Source of the DNA: Bryobacteraceae bacterium
GTDB taxonomy: Bacteria; Acidobacteriota; Terriglobia; Bryobacterales; Bryobacteraceae
DNA length: 64,000 nt
Reading direction: 5' to 3'
Assembly: GCA_050015435.1 (NCBI GenBank)
Contig: JBEKBK010000001.1
Location: forward strand, 15,249-79,248
Part shown: piece after piece, positions 34,003-50,183 of the stretch
Layout of the letters: each line of letters starts with the position of its first letter
How positions within the stretch are numbered: the first letter of the stretch is position 1
Translations under genes and position numbers: made by a program
The notes under the pieces: generated by a model
Told to the model about the DNA's origin: nothing
Seen by the model: only the letters and a program-made list of their open reading frames with translations
Database searches by the model: none

Positions 34003-34991
34003 CTCCGCTCATTGACAGCTTCGACCGCATCCACGACAACCTGCGGATCAGTGTTACGGATCGCTGCAATATCCGCTGCTTTTACTGCATGCCCGAAGTG
34101 GGCGTGAAGTTTCAGCCGCGCGAACAGATCCTGAGCTTCGAAGAGATAGAACGGTTCGTACGAATCGCCGTGACGCTGGGCGTGCGCAAGGTGCGCATCA
34201 CCGGCGGCGAGCCGCTGGTCCGGAAAAATCTGGCGACGCTGGTCCGAAAGCTGGTGGCGATCGAGGGCGTTGAAGACCTGGCGATGACCACCAACGGCGT
34301 GCTGCTGGCGGACCAGGCTGAAGAACTTTACGACGCTGGATTGCGGCGCCTCAATGTCCACCTGGATACGCTGGACCGCGACCGCTTCCTGAAGATCACC
34401 CGGCGAGACGATCTCGAAAAGGTGCTGAACGGCATTGAGGTGTGCCGGCGCCTCGGTTACGGACCGATCAAGATCAACGCCGTGGCCGTGAAAAACCTGG
34501 TGGAACCGGATATCGTTCCGCTGGCTCTTTACGGGCGGGAACGCAACATTGAAATCCGGTACATCGAGTTCATGCCGCTTGATGCGCAGGGGCTGTGGGA
34601 TCGCAACAAAGTGCTGATGACGGATGATATGCTTGCGATGCTCCGGCGCGGCATTGGACCGCTCGAAGAAATTCCGGACCGCGACCAACGCGCACCGGCA
34701 ACGGAATACAAATTTAGCGACGGCATCGGGCGCGTAGGCTTCATTGCGTCCGTCAGCCGGCCCTTCTGCCTGAACTGCAATCGTATCCGGCTGACCTCTG
34801 ACGGCAAACTGCGTTATTGCCTATTCGCGATCGAGGAGACGGACGTCAGGGCGCTGTTGCGCCAGGACGGAGACGATGATTCCATCCGCGCCGCGATCCG
34901 TTCCTGCGTGGCCGGCAAATGGATCGGGCACGAGATCAACTCCGCCAAGTTTGTCGCCCCTCCGCGCCCGATGTACTCGATCGGCGGATAG
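33999..34991 (+). CDS. moaA: GTP 3-prime,8-cyclase (molybdenum cofactor biosynthesis A)
   Basis: Radical-SAM CNIRCFYC motif, C-terminal CLNCNRIRLTSDGKLRYCL cluster. ATGA overlap with nadA. Confidence 0.93.
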   Translation: MTPLIDSFDRIHDNLRISVTDRCNIRCFYCMPEVGVKFQPREQILSFEEIERFVRIAVTLGVRKVRITGGEPLVRKNLATLVRKLVAIEGVEDLAMTTNGVLLADQAEELYDAGLRRLNVHLDTLDRDRFLKITRRDDLEKVLNGIEVCRRLGYGPIKINAVAVKNLVEPDIVPLALYGRERNIEIRYIEFMPLDAQGLWDRNKVLMTDDMLAMLRRGIGPLEEIPDRDQRAPATEYKFSDGIGRVGFIASVSRPFCLNCNRIRLTSDGKLRYCLFAIEETDVRALLRQDGDDDSIRAAIRSCVAGKWIGHEINSAKFVAPPRPMYSIGG

Positions 34992-34992
34992 G
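34933..34992 (+). repeat. Direct repeat copy A (last 19 codons + stop of moaA)
   Basis: 56/60 identical to 39434-39493. See findings. Confidence 0.9.
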
Positions 34993-35017
34993 TCGTGATT
35001 AGTACGTGCCGCTTTTC

Positions 35018-35044
35018 AGAAGGGAGACTCATCGTCTCCCTTCT
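35018..35044. terminator. Hairpin between moaA and the convergent exported-protein gene
   Basis: 11-bp perfect stem AGAAGGGAGAC / GTCTCCCTTCT with a 5-nt loop. No strong T tract. Confidence 0.5.
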
Positions 35045-35061
35045 CCCTTTCGCTCAATAGT

Positions 35062-35568
35062 TTAGTTGAAGTAGTCTGGCAGCCGGGTCTGAGTACGGGT
35101 CACAAAGATGCCCCCCGCAACGATAGCGCTGGGGATTTCCACGGCGTCTGCAATCGACGTGGCGAGAAGCCCGCCTTGCAAAGTTGCCCCCGTGATTACG
35201 AAGTCATCCGTTTGGATCGACGTGGTTCCATTCGACGCGGTAAGAATGCGGTTGATTTTGCCCGTGCCGTTGCAATTCACGGTGTAAGTTCCCGCCTGCG
35301 TGCCGGTTACAAGAGTTCTGGCTCCCGTTGTTGATCCGGCCGTGGGCTCGTTCACGATGAAGGTTCCAGTCAGATTTCCATTTCCGTCGTAATACCTTGT
35401 CCCGAGCGCTATTGCTACGTTAGCGCCGTAATTGGCCACGATCGCATAATTGCCCTGAAGGCTTGCAAGCGTGTAGCAGTTTTGGGTTTGGGCATTGGCG
35501 GCAGACACGCCCAGGAAGCCGGTGAACATGACCACCGCTGGGACAAACAAGTTCATTTTGTTGAACAT
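35062..35568 (-). CDS. Exported hypothetical Gly/Thr/Asn-rich beta protein
   Basis: Signal peptide MNLFVPAVVMFTGFLGVSAANA. 168 aa. Divergent from the ECF sigma gene. Confidence 0.65.
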   Translation of the reverse strand: MFNKMNLFVPAVVMFTGFLGVSAANAQTQNCYTLASLQGNYAIVANYGANVAIALGTRYYDGNGNLTGTFIVNEPTAGSTTGARTLVTGTQAGTYTVNCNGTGKINRILTASNGTTSIQTDDFVITGATLQGGLLATSIADAVEIPSAIVAGGIFVTRTQTRLPDYFN

Positions 35569-35684
35569 GGTTTTCTCTCTCCTTGAATTTCTTTTCGCCT
35601 GGCTGTGTGCCCGGCACTAAACACCTTCGTAAACGGAGGAACAGATGGCTAGCCACTCCGGCAATTTGTGACAGAATTCTCTTG

Positions 35685-36257
35685 ATGGGAGGATCTCCAT
35701 CCGTCTCGGAGTTGCTGATCGCCTGGGGACGAGGCGAGCCGGCCGCGCTCGAACAACTCACACCGCGCGTTTACGGAGAGCTGCACAAGCTCGCTCGAGC
35801 CTATCTGCGACGGGGTATTTCCGGCCAGTCGCTTCAGCCGACGGCGCTCATTAACGAAGCCTACCTGCGATTACTCGACCAATCACAGCCGGTGCAATGG
35901 GAAAATCGGGCACACTTTTTCGGCGTCGCAGCGCGGCTGATGCGCATCATTCTGGTCGACCGGGCGCGCGCCCATCACGCGGCCAAGCGGGGCGGCGTCG
36001 CGGCTGCGGTCACCCTGGACGATTGCATGGCGGTTTCTCCAGGCCGCGCGCCGGACGTGCTCGAGGTCAACGAGGCTCTCGACCGGCTGGCGGAGGTAGA
36101 TGCACGGAAGGCCAAGGTGATTGAAATGCGCTACTTCGGGGGCATGGATCGGGAAGAGGTCGCAACCGCTCTCGGCCTGACGGTTTTCACCGTGAAACGC
36201 GACCTGCGGCTCGGTGAGGCGTGGCTGAGAAGGTTTCTGGCCCGCGAAAGGTCTTGA
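35685..36257 (+). CDS. ECF-type RNA polymerase sigma factor (kinase-associated subgroup)
   Basis: ELLIAWGRGEPAALEQLTPRVYGELHKLARAYLRR..LQPTALINEAYLRL signature and a region 4 HTH. ATG at 35685 preferred over 35583. Confidence 0.85.
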   Translation: MGGSPSVSELLIAWGRGEPAALEQLTPRVYGELHKLARAYLRRGISGQSLQPTALINEAYLRLLDQSQPVQWENRAHFFGVAARLMRIILVDRARAHHAAKRGGVAAAVTLDDCMAVSPGRAPDVLEVNEALDRLAEVDARKAKVIEMRYFGGMDREEVATALGLTVFTVKRDLRLGEAWLRRFLARERS

Positions 36258-36335
36258 GCCTACAAAACACCTCCGTCACACGATACACTTTTTAGTGCAG
36301 TTTCCAAGTCAAGGCAGTCCCAGAGAGGCGGCGAT

Positions 36336-39300
36336 ATGAGCGACCGCTGGCAGCTTGTTGAGGACATCTTCCACCGGGCCGTTGACCTTGCACCGCAGGA
36401 GCGACCCGCTTTTCTCGAAGCAGCCTGCGGAGTGGACCAATCGCTTCGCCGTGAAGTGGAGTCGCTGCTGGACTATGAGTCCGAGTCCGGCACAACGTTT
36501 GCTGGCCCGCCGGGGGATGATGCACCTCGCACCATCGCGCACTATCGTATTTCGGGCAAGCTCGGTCAAGGTGGCATGGGTGCGGTCTACCGGGCGACGG
36601 ACACCAAGCTGGGCCGCCAGGTCGCCATCAAAGTCTTGCCCCGCACCTTCGCCGAAGATGCGGACCGGATGGCCCGTTTCACCCGCGAGGCGAAGGTTCT
36701 CGCTTCGCTGAATCACCCCAACATCGCGCAGATTTACGGCATCGAGGACTCTGGCGGTGTTCGTGCGCTGGTGATGGAGCTGGTTCCTGGGGAGACGCTG
36801 AAAGGACCGCTCCCGCTGGCGACCGTTTTCAACTATGCAAAACAGATTGCGGAAGCGCTGGAGGCCGCGCACGAAAAAGGAATCGTGCATCGCGACTTGA
36901 AACCCGCCAACATCGTGGTCGCGCCCGCTGGCGTGGTCAAAGTGCTTGATTTTGGCCTGGCGAAGGCGGCGCATGAATCGGCGCCGGCCGAAGATCCTTC
37001 TCTCTCCCCGACGTGGACGCTGGCTGAGACAGGCGGAGGAGTCATACTGGGAACCCCGGCATATATGAGCCCGGAGCAGGCCATGGGCAATCCGGTCGAC
37101 CAGCGTGCGGATCTCTTCTCCTTCGGGGTAGTCCTGTATGAGATGGTCACGGGAGTACGTCCGTTCGCGGGAAGCTCGCCGATGGCCGTCGTCGACGCGA
37201 TCCTGCACGCTCAACCGCGCGACATCGGTGACAATCTAGCTCCCCGAAAGCTTAAGACCATCATCCGGAAGCTCCTCGAGAAGGACCCCGCGAATCGTTA
37301 TGATAGCGCCGGTGATGTACGCCGGGAGCTGGAGTCATTAGAGGCTTCTTTGGCGCCGGCTAAGCCCGTGAAATTATCGAGGAATGCGTGGATCGCGGTT
37401 GGAACTGCGGCTGTTCTGGCCGTCGTCCTGGCAGTTTGGCTCTGGCGCGGGTGGTCACGCGAGCGATGGGCGCTCGATACAGCGATGCCGGAGATTACGC
37501 GGCTGATTGAGGGTGGGGAGTATCTCAAAGCCGCCACATTGGCGCGGGAGGCACGTTCGGTGTTGCCGAAGGACCGGACGATTGAGGAACTCTGGAAGCG
37601 AGCGACCGGAGAGGTCTCGATCGCGAGTGTCCCTTCTGGGGCTGAGGTTTCCATTCGACTATATAGAGCAGATCCAAACGTCTGGGAAACACTGGGAAAG
37701 ACACCACTGCAGAAGGTTCGGGTGCCTCAGGACGATTATGTCTGGCGGCTGGTAAAACCTGGATTCGCCGCCGCGTTCTTCATACGTAGACCTCCTGGCG
37801 CGGCGCCGCCCGGCTACCATTCCAGCTTCGATATGACGTTGAAGCTTCGCCCCGCGGGGAGCGTTCCTCCAGAGATGGTCGTCGTCGCGGGAGGGAGCAC
37901 CGGACTCGCATACCCTCTGGAGGCAGCCCCTGGAGTCCGGATCGGCGACTTTCTCATCGACCGGCATGAGGTCACCAACGAAGATTACAAGAAATTCGTT
38001 GACGCCGGCGGGTACCAGAAGCGCGAGTTCTGGAAGCAGCCCTTCGTGAGAGACGGGCGTGCGGTTCCATGGGAACAAGCAATCGCGTTTTTTCACGATT
38101 CGACGGGGCGCCCCGGTCCGGCGACGTGGGAAGTCGGGGATTATCCCCAGGGGCACCAGAAATATCCTGTAGCAGGAGTCAGTTGGTACGAGGCGGCAGC
38201 GTATGCGGAGTTTGTGGGCAAGAGCCTTCCTACGGCGTACCACTGGACGCTTGCATCGCAAGCGGCTAACTACACACCCGTGATCACTCCAGGCAGTAAC
38301 TTCGGGCGCGAAGGAACCCAGCCGGTCGGAAGCGAGAATGCCCTGAGCGGATCCGGCACAACAGACATGGCCGGCAATGTAAAGGAGTGGTGTTTGAATG
38401 AAACGAAGAACGCCAAAAGATTAATCTTGGGCGGGGGCTTCGGCGAATCCAACTATGAGTTCCATCACTTGGACATGCAGTCGCCATGGGATCGCGGGGC
38501 TAACTTCGGTTTTCGATGCGTCAAGCTCGACTCGCCGCCCAGTCCTGCTGCTGCGGCGCATATAGAAGTCACGACTCGCGACTATTGGAAAGAGAAACCG
38601 GTCTCAGACGAGGTCTTCAAGGCCTATACCGCCCTATACGCTTACGACAAGGGGGAGCTGAACGCCCGGGTGGAAGGAACGGAACCGATGGAGGCGTGGT
38701 CGCGAGAGAAAGCTACTTTCGATGCCGCGTACGGTCACGAGCGGGTGACGGCGTACCTCTTTCTCCCGAAGAACGCGCGTGAGCCGTTCCAGACGGTGGT
38801 GTATTTTCCAGGCGGGTTTTCCTTTTTGGACGACAAGCTTGATCTCGCGAGCCTTGAAGAAACCCGCGGCTTCATTATGAAAAGTGGGCGCGCGTTGGTC
38901 GCCCTGATTTATAAAGGCATGTACGAAAGGCGCGATGGCTTCGTGCCCGGCGGCAATGATCCGCCGGCGTTTCGGCGGGACCATGAGATCGCGTGGGCCA
39001 AAGACCTGGGCCGCTTGCTCGACTATTTCGAGACGCGCAAGGACATCGACAGCACCAAGGTGGCCTACTTCAGCGACAGTGCGGGCGGCCCTGAAGGGGC
39101 GCACCTCCCGGCGGTCGAGAAGCGAATCAAGGCCGCGATCCTATCGTCCGGAGGTTTTCAGCTCACGATTCCGTACCGCCCGGAGGTTGACCCGTTCAAC
39201 TTCGCGCCCCACGTAACCATTCCGGTGCTTATGGTGAACGGACGGTACGATTCCTCGTTCCCGTTGGAGTCATCGCAGCTTCCGCTGTTCCACTTCCTCG

Positions 39301-39425
39301 GCACGCCCGACAACGAGAAAAAGCACGTGATCTATGAGGGTGGGCACGGCGCGTTTCCCCGTCCAGCCGCAGTTCGCGAGGCCCTCGACTGGCTCGACAA
39401 GTATCTTGGCCCGGTCCAGCACTAG
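36336..39425 (+). CDS. Ser/Thr protein kinase - TM - FGE/SUMF1-like domain - alpha/beta-hydrolase fusion
   Basis: HRDLKPANI, DFGLAK and SPEQ kinase motifs. TM around residues 345-367. FGE-like HEVTNEDYKKFV..GNVKEWCL. C-terminal hydrolase with FSDSAGG and a His near the end. Confidence 0.9.
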   Translation: MSDRWQLVEDIFHRAVDLAPQERPAFLEAACGVDQSLRREVESLLDYESESGTTFAGPPGDDAPRTIAHYRISGKLGQGGMGAVYRATDTKLGRQVAIKVLPRTFAEDADRMARFTREAKVLASLNHPNIAQIYGIEDSGGVRALVMELVPGETLKGPLPLATVFNYAKQIAEALEAAHEKGIVHRDLKPANIVVAPAGVVKVLDFGLAKAAHESAPAEDPSLSPTWTLAETGGGVILGTPAYMSPEQAMGNPVDQRADLFSFGVVLYEMVTGVRPFAGSSPMAVVDAILHAQPRDIGDNLAPRKLKTIIRKLLEKDPANRYDSAGDVRRELESLEASLAPAKPVKLSRNAWIAVGTAAVLAVVLAVWLWRGWSRERWALDTAMPEITRLIEGGEYLKAATLAREARSVLPKDRTIEELWKRATGEVSIASVPSGAEVSIRLYRADPNVWETLGKTPLQKVRVPQDDYVWRLVKPGFAAAFFIRRPPGAAPPGYHSSFDMTLKLRPAGSVPPEMVVVAGGSTGLAYPLEAAPGVRIGDFLIDRHEVTNEDYKKFVDAGGYQKREFWKQPFVRDGRAVPWEQAIAFFHDSTGRPGPATWEVGDYPQGHQKYPVAGVSWYEAAAYAEFVGKSLPTAYHWTLASQAANYTPVITPGSNFGREGTQPVGSENALSGSGTTDMAGNVKEWCLNETKNAKRLILGGGFGESNYEFHHLDMQSPWDRGANFGFRCVKLDSPPSPAAAAHIEVTTRDYWKEKPVSDEVFKAYTALYAYDKGELNARVEGTEPMEAWSREKATFDAAYGHERVTAYLFLPKNAREPFQTVVYFPGGFSFLDDKLDLASLEETRGFIMKSGRALVALIYKGMYERRDGFVPGGNDPPAFRRDHEIAWAKDLGRLLDYFETRKDIDSTKVAYFSDSAGGPEGAHLPAVEKRIKAAILSSGGFQLTIPYRPEVDPFNFAPHVTIPVLMVNGRYDSSFPLESSQLPLFHFLGTPDNEKKHVIYEGGHGAFPRPAAVREALDWLDKYLGPVQH

Positions 39426-39433
39426 ATGAGCGC

Positions 39434-39493
39434 AGATCAACTCCGCCAAGTTCGTCGCTCCTCCGCGTCTGATGTACTCGATCGGCGGATAGG
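39434..39493 (+). repeat. Direct repeat copy B (displaced moaA 3-prime end)
   Basis: Starts 9 nt after the kinase stop. In the moaA frame it still reads QINSAKFVAPPRLMYSIGG-stop. Confidence 0.9.
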
Positions 39494-39540: not shown

Positions 39541-40788
39541 CTACTTCTTAACAAATTTCCTGACATCACCGAGAAAATCCGCTCCGTAGACGTTGCCGTC
39601 GGCATCCGTGGTGACGCCTTCCGCCAGGCTCGAACCTCCGGCATAAGGATACGGACAAGGATCGGGAATGAAGTACTTGACGGAACCGTCCCGGGCGCTT
39701 CCGATTCGAATGCCACGTTCGGCTCCGAGGTTATAGCCATAACCGGTCTGTGCGAGTCCAAATTGTCCCGTGTTGGTCCGGCCGTCCTTGGATTCTGAGT
39801 CGGCCACATAGAGCATGTCGTTCTTGTCAATGTGAATGCCGCTTGGGCGGCTAAACTGATACCACACGGCGATAAACTTGCCGTTCTGGTCGAAGATCTG
39901 AATGCGGTTGTTTTGACGGTCACCGACGAACAGCCTGCCGCGGGAATCGAAGGCCAGCGTGTGGGGCACATCGAATTCACCTGGGCCCATGCCTTTCTTT
40001 CCCCAGGCCTTGATGAACTTCCCGTTCTTGTCGAACTTCACGATCCGCGCGTTGCCGGTCGCTGTGCCGCCTCCGCTGTGGCCGTCCGCCACGAAAATGT
40101 CGCCGTTAGGAGCGATTGCAACGTCGGTCGGCGCGTCGAACTCGTCCTCGGCCGGCCCTGCAACTCCTTTTTTGCCAAGCGTCATTAAGATCTTGCCGTC
40201 CGGACTGAGCTTGAAGACCTGGTCGCCGCCGTTGTCGGCCAGCCATAGATTACCCTCTTTGTCGATCTCCAATTTGTGAGGGCTGACGAACTTGCCCGCG
40301 CCAAACGCCTTCAGGAGCTTGCCCGACGTGTCGAATTGGAAGATTGGATCCACATTCGCATTAGGGCCGGCACAGGTTGCACCCCCGGCTCCGGAATTGC
40401 CGCAGCGGTCGGTTACCCAGATCGTGCCGTCGGGACCGGTCGCGACGCTCGCAGTGGATCCCCACTTCCGGCCTTCAGGCAACTGTCCCCAACTTACGCC
40501 CGCGCGATACGGATTCGGGAGGTCATTGCGTGCGCCAAGTAGAGACGCCGGTGGCAGTTGGACCGGATATTGACCCGGCGGAAACACTGGTTGGGCACGC
40601 CCACGACCGGCCGTTGGGTTCGCCGGCGCGCCGCAGCTCTGGGCGACCGGCCCAGGAGATCCTTGGGCCTTGAGGTTCTCTGGGGCACTTGCGAGCGCCG
40701 CGATTCCAAGGATAAGGGACGTGGCGCGGGAGAGATACACACAATTCACTCGACTTGCATGGCACATGGTAAGCGATTGTAACTCCAA
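39541..40788 (-). CDS. Exported NHL-repeat six-bladed beta-propeller protein (PAL-like)
   Basis: Repeated blocks F..P..(L/V)..D..G(N/R)L(W/F)V(A/G)D..N.RI..F. Signal-like N-terminus. The start may be 40767. Confidence 0.8.
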   Translation of the reverse strand: MELQSLTMCHASRVNCVYLSRATSLILGIAALASAPENLKAQGSPGPVAQSCGAPANPTAGRGRAQPVFPPGQYPVQLPPASLLGARNDLPNPYRAGVSWGQLPEGRKWGSTASVATGPDGTIWVTDRCGNSGAGGATCAGPNANVDPIFQFDTSGKLLKAFGAGKFVSPHKLEIDKEGNLWLADNGGDQVFKLSPDGKILMTLGKKGVAGPAEDEFDAPTDVAIAPNGDIFVADGHSGGGTATGNARIVKFDKNGKFIKAWGKKGMGPGEFDVPHTLAFDSRGRLFVGDRQNNRIQIFDQNGKFIAVWYQFSRPSGIHIDKNDMLYVADSESKDGRTNTGQFGLAQTGYGYNLGAERGIRIGSARDGSVKYFIPDPCPYPYAGGSSLAEGVTTDADGNVYGADFLGDVRKFVKK

Positions 40789-40811
40789 TATCTCTCCGCA
40801 GCACCCTATAC

Positions 40812-42362
40812 TTAGCGACGCTTGAGTATCCTCGGTAGCAGAATCAGAGCTGCGCCGTAAAACAGCAGCGACACGACTAGCGTCATCGTGCTTTCGCGCG
40901 AGAAATCGCGGACCACGATCTTGCCGGCAGCAACGGTCATTAGAACGTACATCAGCCAGACGAGCTCGGGCCGTTGCCAGCGTTCACCACTCCACGCCAG
41001 CGCTACCGCGAACAGCACCAACACCACCGCACCCACCCCGAGCGACGCCCCCAGACCCGACGCGGACCAAACAAAAACTGCAACGACGAATAGTGCCGGT
41101 ACCCGGCCGCCCGAGCGCGGGATCCTGAAATAACAGACGGCGGCGGCAATCAGAATAATGAGGGCGGCGCGGGATGGAAACGATCCGGTCGTCGCGGCGA
41201 GCAACTGAGAGGCTGAAATCGCGGCCACACCCGAAATTGCTGCCGCCAGCCATAAGAACGCCGGTACCTGGGCGTTCGCGAACGCGGTCCACGAGAGGCC
41301 GATCGCCAATGCCGACCACACTGCGACCAGAGGAACGCCAGAGAACAAGAGAGATGTTGCTGCGATCACCAGCAGTCCTGCGAACGTCGCGTAAGTCTGG
41401 GTGTTGCGGCTGGAGGCTCGTGTCTTAAGGGCTATCGCGTAACATGCCGCGCCTGCGACCAATGCGATCAGACCAACCGGCGTAGTCGCCTTCGTCAGGT
41501 GCAGCGCGCCTCCTGTTGCAAGCGCGAACGCGCAACCCATCTGCCCAATTTCGTAGACGGTGAACGTTCGGCCGCGAATCAGGGTGCTCACCGCCGCGCT
41601 CCCGATGAATACCAGCAGCAGAAGCGCCAGCATCGCCAGAGCGGCAGCCAGAGATACGGGCGCATATCCTTCAGGAAGTCCGCTTACCCGCCCCAGCATG
41701 GTGATCAGAATGAGGATCGCCGCGTCGGCGCATAGGGCGATAAACCAGCGTGTGGCGAGAGTTGCGTACTCGGCTCCGGCCGCGATCGCCAATAGCGCAA
41801 TCGTGAATGGCAGAAGATCGTGAGTGCCAATCAGCAGCGCGCTCGCGATGGCCGCGCCGGCGGAACATGACCACATCGCGACGCGTGTCTTCCAGATCGC
41901 GGCAAGCGAAAACGCGACGATCACACCCGCGGCGGTCCACGTCGAAACCGCCTGTAACCGCACCGTCGCTTCCCAAATCAACGGGGCAAAGATGAATACA
42001 GAACTCAGCGCGTTGGCGGTCGCGGCGAATGTTCCTTCAGCTTGCGTCGCACGCCACAACCAGAAGCCTGCGTACAGGATTCCCACCGCAACGCCCGCTT
42101 TCGAAGGAAGCACGTGGACTTCGGTGAGGGCCCGCAAAAGGTACGCACCCGCAATCGCCAACAGCGCCCGGCCAATCACCGAAACCGCGTCGGAGGAGAC
42201 ATGCAACTGAGGAATCTCAACGGGCGGTGCTGCGGTTACGGGTTTTGGCTCGCGCTGCTCGAGCGCGGAGACACGGCGCTGCAGGTCACGGACCTCGACG
42301 GCCAACTCGCGGAGCTCTTCGCTCGCGAGGTCCGCTTTCGAAGCGACGGAAGACGCGTCCAC
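40812..42362 (-). CDS. Polytopic membrane protein, DUF2339-like (N-terminal coiled coil + 12 or more TM helices)
   Basis: ELRELAVEVRDLQRRVSALEQ followed by many Ala/Leu/Gly-rich TM segments. Confidence 0.65.
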   Translation of the reverse strand: MDASSVASKADLASEELRELAVEVRDLQRRVSALEQREPKPVTAAPPVEIPQLHVSSDAVSVIGRALLAIAGAYLLRALTEVHVLPSKAGVAVGILYAGFWLWRATQAEGTFAATANALSSVFIFAPLIWEATVRLQAVSTWTAAGVIVAFSLAAIWKTRVAMWSCSAGAAIASALLIGTHDLLPFTIALLAIAAGAEYATLATRWFIALCADAAILILITMLGRVSGLPEGYAPVSLAAALAMLALLLLVFIGSAAVSTLIRGRTFTVYEIGQMGCAFALATGGALHLTKATTPVGLIALVAGAACYAIALKTRASSRNTQTYATFAGLLVIAATSLLFSGVPLVAVWSALAIGLSWTAFANAQVPAFLWLAAAISGVAAISASQLLAATTGSFPSRAALIILIAAAVCYFRIPRSGGRVPALFVVAVFVWSASGLGASLGVGAVVLVLFAVALAWSGERWQRPELVWLMYVLMTVAAGKIVVRDFSRESTMTLVVSLLFYGAALILLPRILKRR

Positions 42363-42392
42363 ACGCCTCCTTCTCGACCACCGGAACTCAGC

Positions 42393-43553
42393 TTACGCGG
42401 GCTGATGTTCCTCCCAGGGTGGCAGCAGCTTTAACAGGGCCCACAGGATGCCCAATGGAAGAACCAACAAAATGATGGCCGGCAGCAATCCTTCCTTGGT
42501 GGCGAATTCGACCTTGTAGGTCGTGTACCCCAGGAAGCTCTTCGAAAAGAGTTGTCCGCCGATGACCACGTTCCAGCGCATGGCAAAGATTCCGATGAGC
42601 GTCAGGGAAGCCGCAACGGTATACATCCCACGGCGCACACCGTCGCTCAGGTTCTTCACCTGCGTGATCGCGAGCAGCGCCAACGGCGCCAGCGTCCCGA
42701 TGAAAATCTGCAAAACAATCTGCGAGAAATACAGCCGCGTATGCACCATGAAATCGAGCGAGCGGAACGATTCGTCCGACTCGTAGACTCGATGCACCAG
42801 GTCGAGCATCTCCAGCGAGAAATCGATTACGAAGACATAAAACAGATATTTCGCGATCGCGTCCAGGCACGGCATCTGGATCTCCTGATGCCGCAGGCGA
42901 TTTACTACCTGATAGACGAGCAAGACCAGGGCGATCCCCGACACCATCGCCGAAAACAGAAACACGACGGGCATCAGCGGAGTCGACCACCATGGATTCG
43001 CCTTCACCGATCCGAAGATGAATCCAACGTAGCCGTGCAGCAGAAATGCCGAAGGAATGCCGATCACCGTGACGATCCAGCCGACTCGATCGTCGATGCG
43101 CCGCGACGCTTCGCTGATGTTCTGCGATCCAAGCGTCAGGGCTTTGTAGATCCACTTCACCGGACCGGTTGCGGTGCGCGACATCAGCACGATGTCTTTG
43201 CGATAGTCGAGCCAGATCTCCATCAGCAACACCACCAGCAGGTACCACAAATAAACGAACCCGAACATCGCCATGGCCGAGGTCTTATGCGGCGTCAGAT
43301 ACATCTCGAAAGATCGTTCCGGATGCCCCAGGTGCATTTGCAGCGGAAGCGGCGCGACCAATAAAAATGCAAGCGCGGTCAGCAGCGCCAGCCGGTACGT
43401 CGGCTGCACTTCCTTCACATGGAAGACCCGGGCGAGCGATGCCAGAATAAACGCGCCCGCCACCAGGCCGGTCAGATATGGATACAGAACAATGAGGACG
43501 CTCCACTGGAGCTCCACTTCGTTCGGATACATGAAGCCATCAACGCCTGGCAT
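42393..43553 (-). CDS. NrfD/PsrC-family quinol-interacting membrane subunit
   Basis: N-terminus PNEVELQWSVLIVLYPYLTGLVAGAFIL is typical of NrfD. About 10 TM helices. Confidence 0.85.
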   Translation of the reverse strand: MPGVDGFMYPNEVELQWSVLIVLYPYLTGLVAGAFILASLARVFHVKEVQPTYRLALLTALAFLLVAPLPLQMHLGHPERSFEMYLTPHKTSAMAMFGFVYLWYLLVVLLMEIWLDYRKDIVLMSRTATGPVKWIYKALTLGSQNISEASRRIDDRVGWIVTVIGIPSAFLLHGYVGFIFGSVKANPWWSTPLMPVVFLFSAMVSGIALVLLVYQVVNRLRHQEIQMPCLDAIAKYLFYVFVIDFSLEMLDLVHRVYESDESFRSLDFMVHTRLYFSQIVLQIFIGTLAPLALLAITQVKNLSDGVRRGMYTVAASLTLIGIFAMRWNVVIGGQLFSKSFLGYTTYKVEFATKEGLLPAIILLVLPLGILWALLKLLPPWEEHQPA

Positions 43554-47410: not shown

Positions 47411-50068
47411 CTACTTACCGGTGGGCACTTTACGCAGCAATTCGTCGAAGAAGTTCAGCACGAAGGTGACGTGTACCGAACCTTTCTCGGGTCCGGCACC
47501 TTCCGGCATGGGGAACACGGCGAAGCGCTTGCCGTCCGGCGCCAAGGCCAGGTTCGAAGAGCTGGGATAAAAGATTTGCTTTTCGGACCATAGGCGCGGC
47601 TTGCCGGGCACGAACGAATCGCCGTTCACTGTGTAATCCATCACCATAATGCGGTTGTCCGCCGTCTCGTAGAACAGTTCCCGGCCGTTGTTGGACCAAA
47701 TTGGGTACAGCCCGCCTCCGGTCGAGATCTGCCACTTGCCGCCCCGCCCCGCAGGGAAAGGCCGCACGTAGATCTCGGAGTTTCCCGATTCGTTGGACCG
47801 GTCCGCGATCCATCGTCCGTCGGGTGAGAACATCGGTACCAACTCATTCGATGGCGTTCCGAGAAACAACTCCGGCTTGCCCGGCTTGGGGTGGTCGGGA
47901 TCGCTCGTGTCCAGACTTATTGTGGAGATGTCATTAGCGGTCTCGGGATTTGTCTCGAAGTAGGCCAGACGCCGACCGTCGGGCGAGAAGGACCACGGCA
48001 CTATGTTGTTTTGAGCCGCGAGGAGCCGCTCTGGTTCTCCGGAGCCATCGCTGCGGATCCAATCGATCCCGGAACCGTTGGCAGACGAGGAGAAGACTAT
48101 GTGCTTCCCGTCAGGGGTCCAGGTCGGGTTCCCCGCGTGCCCCCCGAAGGTGAGCTGTGTCATCGTTTCCCGCTCCAACTCATAGACATAGACGTCGGTG
48201 CCGCTGCTGGTACTCATCAACAGCGCCAGCCGCCGCCCGTCGGGCGAAAACCGGGGAACGGTATACGCACCCAGGCTAGCAACCAGGGGCTGCATCTTCC
48301 CGGAACTGTCGAGCCACATGACCGGCCAGGTCTGAGTCGCCCCTTTCCCTGCCAGGTACACCAAGGTTCCGTGCCCGGAGGGTGCCCACGAAACATCGAA
48401 CTGACCGCCGCCCTGAATCGGGCTTGCGCCCACGTCTTCCAGAAGCGGCACTGGTGTGCTTTGAAGCTCCAGCCGGGTGGGGTCGAGACCCGCTGCCATC
48501 AGCACGCCTTGATGCAGGTAAACCAGATAACCGCGGGTTCCGTTCGCCGGCAGATAACGGCCGAGGTATCCCTCAGCTACCAGTGTCTTGGTAACGCCGC
48601 TGTTGAAAGATGTTGCTTCAACGCTCGCGTTCTCCATTCCGATTACAGTGGGAGAGGCCGTGAAAAGAACCGTCTGGCCTCCCGGCAAGATCTGCGGCCA
48701 GCGATGGGATGACGCACCTTTACCCAGTTTTGTCAACGGCTGCGGCCTTCCCCCGGCAGCGGGCACCTGGGATAGGCCGGCTGTCTGGTTAAGCGCCGCG
48801 ATAATCGTTCCGTCTTCTCCCCAACTGCCGCCGTAATCGAACGCAGCATCACACAGAGTCACCGGTGCCCCACCCTGGACGGATATCTTCTTGAGCTTGC
48901 CATCTGCGAAGAATCCGACCCATTGGTTGTCGGGAGAGAAAAACGCATCTCGGCCATTTTCGGTACCAGGTAGCAGGATGGCTTGAGCCTGGTCCAGCAG
49001 CCGGGTGGCAAGCTGCTGTTTGCCATTAGGACCTCGCGCCGGAAAAACCAGCCGACGGCCGTCGGGCGAGATGGCAACGGTGAGATTGAGACCGGTCATC
49101 GCGCCCGGCCCCAAGTCCACGCTCAGCCGCGTCAAGGGAAGATCCAGGGGCCGCGTCGCGCGCCAATAAAGGCCCCCGACTGAGACCAACGCAATCGCTA
49201 GCACCCCTGCCGCCCAACCGAGCCACGAGCGTGAGGGAGCGACTGCGAGAGGCCGCTCTTCCAGCAAGCGCCGTGCGTCGCCGATGTCCAGCAACCGCTG
49301 CTTCGGGTCCTTTTCCAGACGACTGTGCAGCAGGCGTTGCACCTTGTCCGGGATTCGTTTCCAATCGGGCTCGTCCTTGATCACCGACGCAAGCGTCTCC
49401 GACACGTCGTCGCCTTTGAACGGCCGATGACCGGTCAGCAATTCGTACATTAGTACTCCGAACGCCCAGATGTCAGCCCGCTTGTCCACCTGTTTGCCGC
49501 GCGCCTGCTCGGGACTCATATACGCGGCCGTCCCCAGGATCACGCCGACTTCAGTCGCACCCATGGTCAGCGTGGGGGAGTTTTCATTCGACCCCGGAGA
49601 AGCGTCCTTCTGCGCAGCGAACGCCTTAGCTAATCCGAAATCCAGCAACTTGACCGTCCCGTCCGGCGTGACCTTCACGTTGGCGGGTTTCAGGTCACGA
49701 TGCATAATGCCCCGCTCGTGTGCATATTCCAACGCTGCGGCGATCTGTGACGCAATCTTCCAGGCCTCGTCGAACGGCAGTGGACCCTTTGGTGAATCGC
49801 CTTCCACCAGTTCCATGACCAGCGCACGGTCTTCTACGCCATGGATGGTGGCGATGTTGGGATGATTTAGGGAGGCGAGCACTTCCGCCTCGCGCTGGAA
49901 GCGCGCCATGCGTTCGGCGTCGCGAGCAAAAGCCTCGGGCAGAATTTTAATTGCCACATCGCGCTTCAGCTTGGTATCGCGTGCGCGGTAGACTTCGCCC
50001 ATACCGCCTGCGCCAATAGGCGCAAGGATCTCATAGTGACCCATACGAGTTCCGGTAGAAATGGGCAT
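47411..50068 (-). CDS. Ser/Thr protein kinase with TM segment and C-terminal PD40/TolB-like beta-propellers
   Basis: HRDLKPANV and DFGLAKA motifs. Repeated FSPDGRRLA / WTPDGKHIVF PD40 motifs. Confidence 0.9.
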   Translation of the reverse strand: MPISTGTRMGHYEILAPIGAGGMGEVYRARDTKLKRDVAIKILPEAFARDAERMARFQREAEVLASLNHPNIATIHGVEDRALVMELVEGDSPKGPLPFDEAWKIASQIAAALEYAHERGIMHRDLKPANVKVTPDGTVKLLDFGLAKAFAAQKDASPGSNENSPTLTMGATEVGVILGTAAYMSPEQARGKQVDKRADIWAFGVLMYELLTGHRPFKGDDVSETLASVIKDEPDWKRIPDKVQRLLHSRLEKDPKQRLLDIGDARRLLEERPLAVAPSRSWLGWAAGVLAIALVSVGGLYWRATRPLDLPLTRLSVDLGPGAMTGLNLTVAISPDGRRLVFPARGPNGKQQLATRLLDQAQAILLPGTENGRDAFFSPDNQWVGFFADGKLKKISVQGGAPVTLCDAAFDYGGSWGEDGTIIAALNQTAGLSQVPAAGGRPQPLTKLGKGASSHRWPQILPGGQTVLFTASPTVIGMENASVEATSFNSGVTKTLVAEGYLGRYLPANGTRGYLVYLHQGVLMAAGLDPTRLELQSTPVPLLEDVGASPIQGGGQFDVSWAPSGHGTLVYLAGKGATQTWPVMWLDSSGKMQPLVASLGAYTVPRFSPDGRRLALLMSTSSGTDVYVYELERETMTQLTFGGHAGNPTWTPDGKHIVFSSSANGSGIDWIRSDGSGEPERLLAAQNNIVPWSFSPDGRRLAYFETNPETANDISTISLDTSDPDHPKPGKPELFLGTPSNELVPMFSPDGRWIADRSNESGNSEIYVRPFPAGRGGKWQISTGGGLYPIWSNNGRELFYETADNRIMVMDYTVNGDSFVPGKPRLWSEKQIFYPSSSNLALAPDGKRFAVFPMPEGAGPEKGSVHVTFVLNFFDELLRKVPTGK

Positions 50069-50183
50069 GGGTGTGGATCATTTTACTCCAATGGGGTAGG
50101 CTCCAGCGAAGCGGGGATTGCTCAAAAATAAGTCGCATCGAATGGCGACCTGATTGCATCAGACACAATGGAGGTTCTTGGCG

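Follow-up and report, generated by a model that had tools for sequence, protein, structure and literature searches.

How does a regulatory gene module come to lie between two copies of the end of a housekeeping gene when no recombinase gene lies with it? This question is raised by the 64,000-nucleotide stretch of contig JBEKBK010000001.1 from a Bryobacteraceae bacterium that was analyzed here as a whole (the window). A segment of 60 nucleotides (nt) from the 3' end of moaA, the gene for GTP 3',8-cyclase, recurs there at an offset of 4501 nt with 56 of 60 positions identical, and the DNA between the two copies carries genes for an exported protein of 168 amino acids (aa; gene exp168), an extracytoplasmic function (ECF) sigma factor and a Ser/Thr kinase (STK). 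A preliminary description had read the arrangement as an att-like scar, of the kind that integrative elements leave at the end of a target gene. From the evidence set out below, a scar of insertion or displacement produced by ordinary recombination at a hypervariable interval is the better reading. The form of it that we favor, displacement of the moaA 3' end by recombination at a gene-turnover hotspot, is in our judgment about evenly balanced between being right and being wrong.

The moaA repeat and the module it brackets

A repeat search and a degenerate pattern search both found exactly two copies of the 60-mer in the window (copies A and B; coordinates in Table 1). It is the sole strong repeat of the window, and 100 dinucleotide shuffles gave no such match by chance. 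When the surroundings of the two copies are aligned, similarity breaks off abruptly at both edges, the left edge falling on the second base of the moaA Glu-312 codon and the right edge one base beyond the stop codon; the repeat search found no inverted repeats at the ends of the insert. In the moaA frame copy B reads QINSAKFVAPPRLMYSIGG followed by a stop. It has no start codon and is preceded, two codons upstream in the same frame, by a TGA, so that it is an orphan fragment that is not translated as such. The four differences between the copies (TTT/TTC, GCC/GCT, CGC/CGT and CCG/CTG) comprise three synonymous changes and one change from Pro to Leu. In these respects the preliminary description was accurate: the repeat and its offset are borne out by both searches, the differences by translation of copy B, and the gene content by translation and by Pfam and NCBIfam searches, which found nothing between the copies besides exp168, the ECF sigma factor and the kinase, and no recombinase or transposase domain. 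Its argument that the synonymous pattern marks copy B as a once-functional terminus is too weak to keep, because a bias of three to one is drawn from only four changes, all of which are C/T transitions.

The arrangement is found in several independent assemblies, and an assembly artifact is thereby rejected. An identical MoaA is encoded on eight contigs from JGI, ENA and Logan assemblies, all eight of which continue into the cassette, and copy B with its flanking NHL-repeat gene is present on all three contigs that are long enough. The contigs of this species are 99.9-100% identical to the window, with the exception of one at 98.8%, and therefore offer no within-species variation to exploit. 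On the contig from JGI 3300040946, which over 16.5 kb departs from the window at only 2 positions, the cassette kinase (L082:7849-10938, equivalent to 36336-39425 of the window) is called as two open reading frames (ORFs) of 707 and 316 aa, apparently a population variant whose kinase is interrupted.

The states shared by the two copies point to where copy B came from. Both carry the lineage-diagnostic residues Ala-Lys and Val-Ala-Pro-Pro (VPPP in other lineages), and both have the synonymous states GCC (Ala), GTC and TAC and the stop codon TAG, which differ in the nearest other lineage, L089 (95% MoaA identity; its contig ends 7 nt after the stop). Over the 60 nt, A and B differ at four positions, A and L089 at five, and B and L089 at seven, and when L089 is used for polarization three of the four A/B differences fall on the copy B branch. 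Judged by these states, copy B is a fragment of this lineage's own moaA terminus. The suggested identity of copy B, a moaA terminus that was either duplicated or displaced, thus stands, and the further suggestion that copy B was brought in from the allele of a divergent lineage is rejected by the lineage-specific states that it shares with copy A.

The same comparison gives a rough age. Fourfold-site divergence in moaA is 0.30 between the window and L089 and 0.48 between the window and a lineage of 86% MoaA identity, and we estimate that about 13 A/B differences would be expected under neutral drift since the split from L089. The four observed are several-fold fewer, which, if copy B drifts neutrally, places the duplication recently and within this lineage. 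Divergence of moaA from L089 is uniform along the gene and is uninformative as a trace of a recombination tract.

The DNA between the copies is a unit in its own right. A second triad in the same genome or sample (L175:4123-8507) has the same organization, with exp168 again divergent from the other two genes (85% identity for exp168, 86% for the ECF sigma factor and 78% for the kinase, which is likewise of the FGE-sulfatase type), and it aligns to positions 35019-39426 of the window, from the exp168 hairpin to the kinase stop codon. Only 26 nt on the left of the insert and 7 nt on the right lie outside this homology. Since the homology spans nearly the whole insert, the insert comprises a single complete copy of a three-gene module that is native and recurrent, and the earlier suggestion that the three genes behave as one unit is upheld by the paralogous triad. 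The recurrent module, a divergent secreted 168-aa gene with an ECF sigma factor and a Ser/Thr kinase, has at least two copies in this genome. A third triad, with a different kinase C-terminus, is found in L178-L181 (L178:4375-8507), and the kinase C-terminal domains vary among triads between FGE-sulfatase plus hydrolase and Tricorn/Tol-like types.

The exp168 family has 858 homologues in Bryobacteraceae/Terriglobia and no Pfam or NCBIfam model, and its member nearest to that of the cassette (85%) belongs to the same metagenome-assembled genome and the same metagenome samples. The ECF sigma factor (PF07638/TIGR02999) stands beside the Ser/Thr kinase with no anti-sigma factor, a pairing repeated in L173, L174, L175 and L178, and the closest kinases from other organisms (76% and 75%) directly follow ECF sigma genes that are 88% identical. 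In other Bryobacteraceae the ECF-STK pairs sit in contexts unrelated to moaA, and their homology to the window covers only 35655-39428. Some 10 kb beyond the right end of the cassette there is a further Ser/Thr kinase paralogue (49367-50074, minus strand); its catalytic domain is ~62-64% identical at the amino acid level to the L173 and L174 kinases, and it shares with the cassette kinase a 127-nt inverted match of 71% (36842-36968/49622-49748).

In composition the cassette looks native. Its tetranucleotide correlation with the window falls at the 24th percentile for windows of 4.4 kb, and its GC3 of 0.66-0.71 is similar to that of neighboring genes. The comparison of k-mer and codon usage that the preliminary description had proposed thus shows no foreign composition. 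The paralogous cassettes differ at 36-41% of fourfold sites, as against 2 of 10 for the moaA tails A and B. This far larger divergence makes the paralogues much older than the tails, and the module cannot have been copied from the L175 locus when the tails arose. No repeats flank the paralogous L175 cassette. About 0.9 kb past the paralogous exp168 there is a 116-aa Y2_Tnp fragment (L175:9433-9783; PF04986, IS91-type transposase).

Gene turnover and orphan tails after moaA

The setting of the cassette was compared with that of moaA in relatives. MoaA scans yielded 80 GTDB-species loci and 80 metagenome loci, and together with the contigs of the five closest MoaA clusters these make up ~170 loci; public Bryobacterales moaA loci were detected in their thousands. 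Upstream, synteny is common to the relatives, in the form of a conserved block of YdjM, DAGK, ligA, VTT, nadA and moaA that moaA closes. Downstream, the first ORF falls into 86 clusters among 137 loci, and even the nearest lineages (86-87% MoaA identity) have MoCoBD, PNTB, CpsB_CapC or DUF6644 directly after moaA. Pairs of loci at 85-95% nucleotide identity typically lose collinearity between -4 and +14 nt from the stop codon and regain it after an indel of 0.5-5 kb.

Two such pairs illustrate the pattern. L090 and L094, at ~90% DNA identity, differ by a 5,193-bp insertion at stop+1 (L090:10995-16187 versus L094:1845-1854), which places a MoCoBD oxidoreductase, a 2Fe-2S protein and YfhO between moaA and the convergent pntB, where L094 has a gap of 13 nt; no significant moaA tail remnant was found at the right end of this insert. 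L052 differs from L040 and L170 by a 2.5-kb insertion (L052:11002-13523) that begins 14 nt after the moaA stop and has CCTAG at both ends. This last insertion carries a hypothetical protein and a GlcNAc-2-epimerase-like gene with no transposase, and its ends resemble a short target duplication. The inserts examined encode a methyltransferase, an epimerase, a Schlafen/AlbA protein, DUF3738 and hypothetical proteins, and none encodes a recombinase. Several close MoaA homologues are annotated as longer than the 330 aa of the protein in the window (336, 341-343, 350 and 354 aa).

Signs of a dedicated system were sought in the same loci. In a Pfam summary of 144 ORFs lying up to 5 kb downstream of moaA in relatives, no integrase or transposase recurred among the 25 families listed; the summary covered families with at least two members within 10 kb, so that singletons could be missed. 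A crude regular-expression screen of 922 ORFs for tyrosine-recombinase motifs returned a single match, to LpxD, which is false. No viral contig carries a MoaA fragment or a moaA tail, the 80 nt that directly follow the moaA stop have no conserved motif when compared among 135 loci, and a literature search for moaA as attB returned nothing relevant. Downstream of moaA, neither exp168, nor the ECF-kinase pair, nor the NHL, 516-aa and NrfD genes of the window occur in the ~170 related loci. With a conserved upstream side, variable DNA after the stop and no recurrent recombinase or motif, the interval after moaA is a gene-turnover hotspot across Bryobacteraceae that lacks a recognizable site-specific system.

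Orphan pieces of moaA recur at this hotspot. Each locus was searched with its own tail at both the nucleotide and the protein level, and three further lineages were found to have orphan moaA 3' fragments, each with different cargo. In L065 the last 59 nt of moaA recur 443 nt downstream at 88% identity, with boundaries as in the window. The 443-nt segment between the tails (L065:10988-11430) holds a lone antitoxin-type gene of the AF2212-like family (PF01954) with no partner toxin. Both L065 tails carry residues specific to that lineage (TVQ and MHA); L065 and the window share 72% MoaA identity, and by our own count their tails differ at ~30% of positions. By eye, the DNA after the second L065 tail is richer in AT than that on the moaA side. 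In L054 the fragment is 147 nt long and 95% identical, lies behind a divergent pseudo-copy of the downstream gene and starts with ATCAA; this case is to be taken with caution, as the locus is 1.1 kb from a contig end. In L029 (L029:10991-12373) a complete moaA gives way directly to a decayed repetition of its codons ~263-308 (~200 nt), which was later interrupted by a methyltransferase ORF of 419 aa. The joint of this duplication falls within a CT(T/C)AC(T/C)TC microhomology that the convergent downstream gene also has at its end. Tails of differing length and cargo in separate lineages indicate that orphan gene ends arise repeatedly at moaA. Short tail duplicates of 12-17 nt in other loci are at chance level (56 forward versus 44 in the control).

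Table 1. Coordinates of the repeat copies, the bracketed module and the adjoining features in the window.
Feature	Position	Strand	Basis or remark
moaA (GTP 3',8-cyclase), complete, 330 aa	33999-34991	+	PF04055+PF06463; TIGR02666, 373 bits
Repeat copy A, functional moaA 3' end (codons 312-330, stop, 1 nt)	34933-34992	+	
Spacer of 26 nt, from copy A to the start of homology with the paralogous cassette	34993-35018		
Block homologous to the second exp168-ECF-STK triad (L175); the unit between the repeats	35019-39426		79.5% nucleotide identity over 4,440 nt
Hairpin GGGAGAC-TCATC-GTCTCCC between convergent moaA and exp168, probably the exp168 terminator	35022-35040		Kept in the paralogous cassette
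exp168, 168 aa, N-terminal signal peptide	35062-35568	-	Translation; no Pfam/NCBIfam family
ECF sigma factor	35685-36257	+	PF07638 Sigma70_ECF; TIGR02999 Sig-70_X6
Ser/Thr kinase (Pkinase)-PEGA-FGE-sulfatase (SUMF1-like) fusion with hydrolase-like C-terminal region, 1029 aa	36336-39425	+	Pfam/NCBIfam
8 nt ATGAGCGC between kinase stop codon and copy B	39426-39433		
Repeat copy B, orphan untranslatable moaA 3' fragment	39434-39493	+	
NHL-repeat beta-propeller gene, convergent on copy B, 47-nt gap	39541-40482	-	Domain search

To the right of copy B the gene order is NHL, a 516-aa protein, NrfD, a 4Fe-4S protein and a multihaem cytochrome (39541-43553 and beyond; L081:15543-20802), the 516-aa protein being without a family and the cytochrome small. 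These genes may form a membrane-bound oxidoreductase cluster, which might use the molybdenum cofactor, and the adjacency of such a cluster to a moaA tail may be more than accidental.

Proposed displacement of the moaA end and competing explanations

It is plausible that the arrangement arose from two closely related chromosomes that differed after moaA, one in which the gene was followed by the exp168-ECF-STK module and one in which it converged on the NHL gene and what lies beyond. The two would have paired by homology in or upstream of moaA on one side, and on the other the kinase-side DNA, broken off 8 nt after the kinase stop codon, would have been fused through a single illegitimate joint (39433/39434) to the other moaA, 59 nt short of that gene's end. 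Such a process, homology-facilitated illegitimate recombination or an equivalent unequal exchange, would need no dedicated recombinase. Its product would be an intact moaA ending in copy A, the three-gene module, and the orphan tail of the other parent (copy B) still joined to its own neighbor; copy B would be without function and in decay, as seen in its Pro-to-Leu change and the loss of its Glu codon. We infer the two parental arrangements, the homologous anchor and the direction of transfer from this product.

Several observations fit such a course of events. The boundary 39433/39434 is the one clearly novel (illegitimate) joint, and because the homology with the paralogous triad already begins at the exp168 terminator and extends to the kinase stop, only one junction need be new, which makes this the simplest account. 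The window holds an intact moaA with, downstream of it, an orphan 3' fragment from a closely related allele, and across the relatives the anchor side is conserved and the distal side variable. The model accounts for the lineage-specific character of both copies, the lack of a recombinase, the native cargo, the hotspot and the varied lengths of the fragments in other lineages.

There are also points that weigh against displacement. Neither parental arrangement (moaA-exp168-ECF-STK without copy B, or moaA-NHL) is present in the ~170 loci, and the sampled members of the species, bar the contig at 98.8%, are >99.9% identical. The joint shows no microhomology overlap; the nearest resemblances lie 8 nt away from it, namely the similar strings GCACGAGATCA and GCACTAGATGA and a 9/12 match of GCACGAGATCAA to GCACTAGATGAG. 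The repeats of the window and of L065 start at the same moaA nucleotide, and the L054 fragment starts with the same ATCAA, a shared start that a non-specific mechanism does not predict (rough p ~0.05-0.2 allowing for ascertainment, on the assumption that only fragments of roughly 30-200 nt are detectable and stable). The exact end of the repeat at stop+1 means that the parental arrangements must differ from the first base after the gene. Lastly, the model presupposes that DNA would enter this organism by natural transformation or some other route.

A first rival, close to the explanation put forward in the preliminary description, is that the copies are attL and attR of an element which integrated into the moaA 3' end with a replacement gene end, and which later lost its integrase or is mobilized in trans, as a cis-mobilizable element (CIME) or a mobilizable island would be. 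Of the rivals this one survives best, and we still consider it unlikely. The geometry is classical, in that the direct repeat restores the 3' end of the target gene and ends with its stop codon, insertions are frequent at the site, and the distant L065 repeat, with the same left and right boundaries around a different and tiny cargo, is what a shared att site would give. Against this, no recombinase lies inside the insert, the family summary of the downstream ORFs, in which singletons could be missed, showed no recurrent one, the motif screen gave only the match to LpxD, and no viral contig has a MoaA fragment or the tail. Both copies in each lineage carry that lineage's own synonymous and amino acid states, with some 30% difference between the window and L065 tails, so an attP borne by an element would have to track each host. 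Furthermore, the cargo is a native-type paralogous regulatory module of host composition whose paralogue has no flanking repeats, the post-stop DNA has no conserved motif, and the fragments in L054 (147 nt) and L029 (~200 nt) are of other lengths. The tests for a recombinase, for viral contigs, for composition, for a post-stop motif and for repeats around the paralogue were thus all negative, and the att-like scar is left with no positive evidence from them.

A deletion or empty site would read moaA, the hybrid 60-mer and GCGAGCTACTC, and a circular form would read CACTAGATGAGCGC, the 60-mer and TCGTGATTAG. No relative has the NHL gene beside moaA, and the empty moaA-NHL site to which the preliminary description had looked, an attB with both flanks, was not found in the ~170 loci, of which the nearest informative ones are only 86-87% identical in MoaA. 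Within 10 kb of moaA and among families with at least two members, no cognate integrase-bearing element for a CIME or an island mobilized in trans was found.

An origin within the genome ranks next and is, in our opinion, improbable. Here the moaA tail would have been duplicated in situ, by microhomology slippage or a staggered break, and the module would have been inserted later between two identical copies. L029 provides the precedent, with a tandem moaA 3' duplication made through microhomology and a gene later inserted in the spare copy; the fall of three of the four A/B differences on the copy B branch is as expected for decay from an identical copy, and the nearest relative of the cassette is in the same genome. 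This course needs at least two events and two new junctions, however, and neither the segment that follows copy A (34993-35018) nor the one that precedes copy B (39427-39433) resembles the DNA after copy B, so that no duplicated downstream segment is visible. For the window, a tandem duplication as the first step is rejected by this dissimilarity. The fourfold divergence of the paralogues, set against that of the tails, also speaks against a module copied from L175 at the time, and there is no transposase, terminal inverted repeat or fixed-length target duplication. A transposon with target-site duplication was rejected separately, as the insert has neither a transposase nor inverted repeats at its ends. 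A 60-bp duplication is far longer than the usual transposon target-site duplication.

A bolder alternative, which we regard as very unlikely, is that the moaA 3' end in Bryobacteraceae is a dedicated acceptor site for cassettes, served by a recombinase encoded elsewhere or by some other mechanism. Such a system might cut between GAR and ATCAAC and again just after the stop, insert recombinase-less cassettes of one to three genes and duplicate the 59-60-nt gene end, and by analogy it might resemble an integron-like platform on the terminus of a housekeeping gene. In its favor are the identical boundaries in two lineages that share 72% MoaA, the ATCAA start in L054 and the extreme turnover exactly at the stop. 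A site-specific cassette system of this sort, acting in trans at moaA, would if real be a gene-capture platform of a new type; the evidence does not favor it.

That copy B is instead a functional or multi-copy element (repetitive extragenic palindromic (REP)-like sequence, RNA element, terminator or small ORF), a chance match or an artifact is scarcely credible: it does lie in a short space between two convergent genes, the sort of place in which terminators and REP elements are frequent, but the 64 kb hold just two copies of the 60-mer and the other fetched contigs of the genome hold none, its folding does not surpass that of shuffled sequences (z between +0.9 and -0.3), Rfam matches no family anywhere in the window, no terminator-like site was found, and the upstream TGA, the missing start codon, the independent assemblies and the shuffles speak against the remainder. 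For the window and the fetched contigs, a REP-like element, which the preliminary description had allowed for, and a structured element are accordingly rejected.

Displacement at the hotspot therefore remains the reading that we favor, and the locus is of value as a clean, dated example of a regulatory module that moved to a new chromosomal address without mobile-element machinery, in an uncultured soil/peat acidobacterium. The most interesting by-products of the analysis are the strong turnover hotspot next to moaA across Bryobacteraceae and the recurrent triad of secreted protein, ECF sigma factor and Ser/Thr kinase. For annotation it carries a warning, in that a direct repeat of a gene terminus is insufficient to call an integrative element.

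Comparison with known systems

Site-specific elements provide geometric parallels. The e14 element and phage 21 integrate in the 3' end of E. coli icd and bring a replacement end of their own, with the integrase gene beside the att site. The window resembles these cases in the repeat of terminal codons, the intact gene and the mainly synonymous changes of the displaced copy. It differs in having no integrase and a native-like cargo, and in that both copies are lineage-specific, whereas at icd the alleles are those of element and host. CIMEs, such as those at the 3' end of fda in Streptococcus thermophilus, coexist with cognate integrative and conjugative elements that use the same att site. 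They share with our locus an att-like pair of repeats at a gene 3' end around DNA without recombination genes, but no cognate element or integrase was found at moaA in the ~170 related loci.

The wider setting and the cargo have parallels as well. Oliveira, Touchon and Rocha reportedly described, in 2017, chromosomal integration hotspots between core genes that mostly lack recognizable mobile-element genes. The moaA interval is similar in its conserved flank and highly variable gene content, with one flank (moaA) examined here. As for the module, Staron et al. are said to have defined in 2009 the group ECF43, in which ECF sigma factors are paired in the genome with Ser/Thr kinases, and sigma-factor phosphorylation is reportedly the subject of work by Iyer et al. 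from 2020. The cassette is like ECF43 in that a PF07638/TIGR02999 sigma factor is directly followed by a Ser/Thr kinase with no anti-sigma gene, a likeness of gene context and not a formal group assignment. The divergent secreted 168-aa partner, present in several of the triads here, is a point of difference, and to our knowledge it is not part of the described ECF43 context.

A close match is with the loci of Rhs and contact-dependent inhibition (CDI) proteins, in which C-termini are displaced, and with the orphan immunity arrays of type VI secretion systems (T6SS). Both have been attributed to homology-facilitated illegitimate recombination (Kirchberger et al. 2017, PMC5361080, citing Jackson et al. 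2009, de Vries & Wackernagel 2002, Prudhomme et al. 2002 and Meier & Wackernagel 2003), and the displacement process is summarized in PMC3240628. As in those loci, the conserved 5' part of a gene would serve as the anchor, incoming DNA would bring a full new 3' end together with downstream genes, and the resident 3' end would be displaced downstream as an orphan; the locus varies among close relatives, and there is no recombinase. The cargo is different, a sigma factor/kinase module here and toxin/immunity genes there, and the mechanism is inferred in both. Unlike those systems, the anchor at our locus is a housekeeping cofactor gene whose 3' end is not polymorphic, so that only the downstream content changes and not the protein. 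With these differences, the event in the window is a further example of an already known kind.

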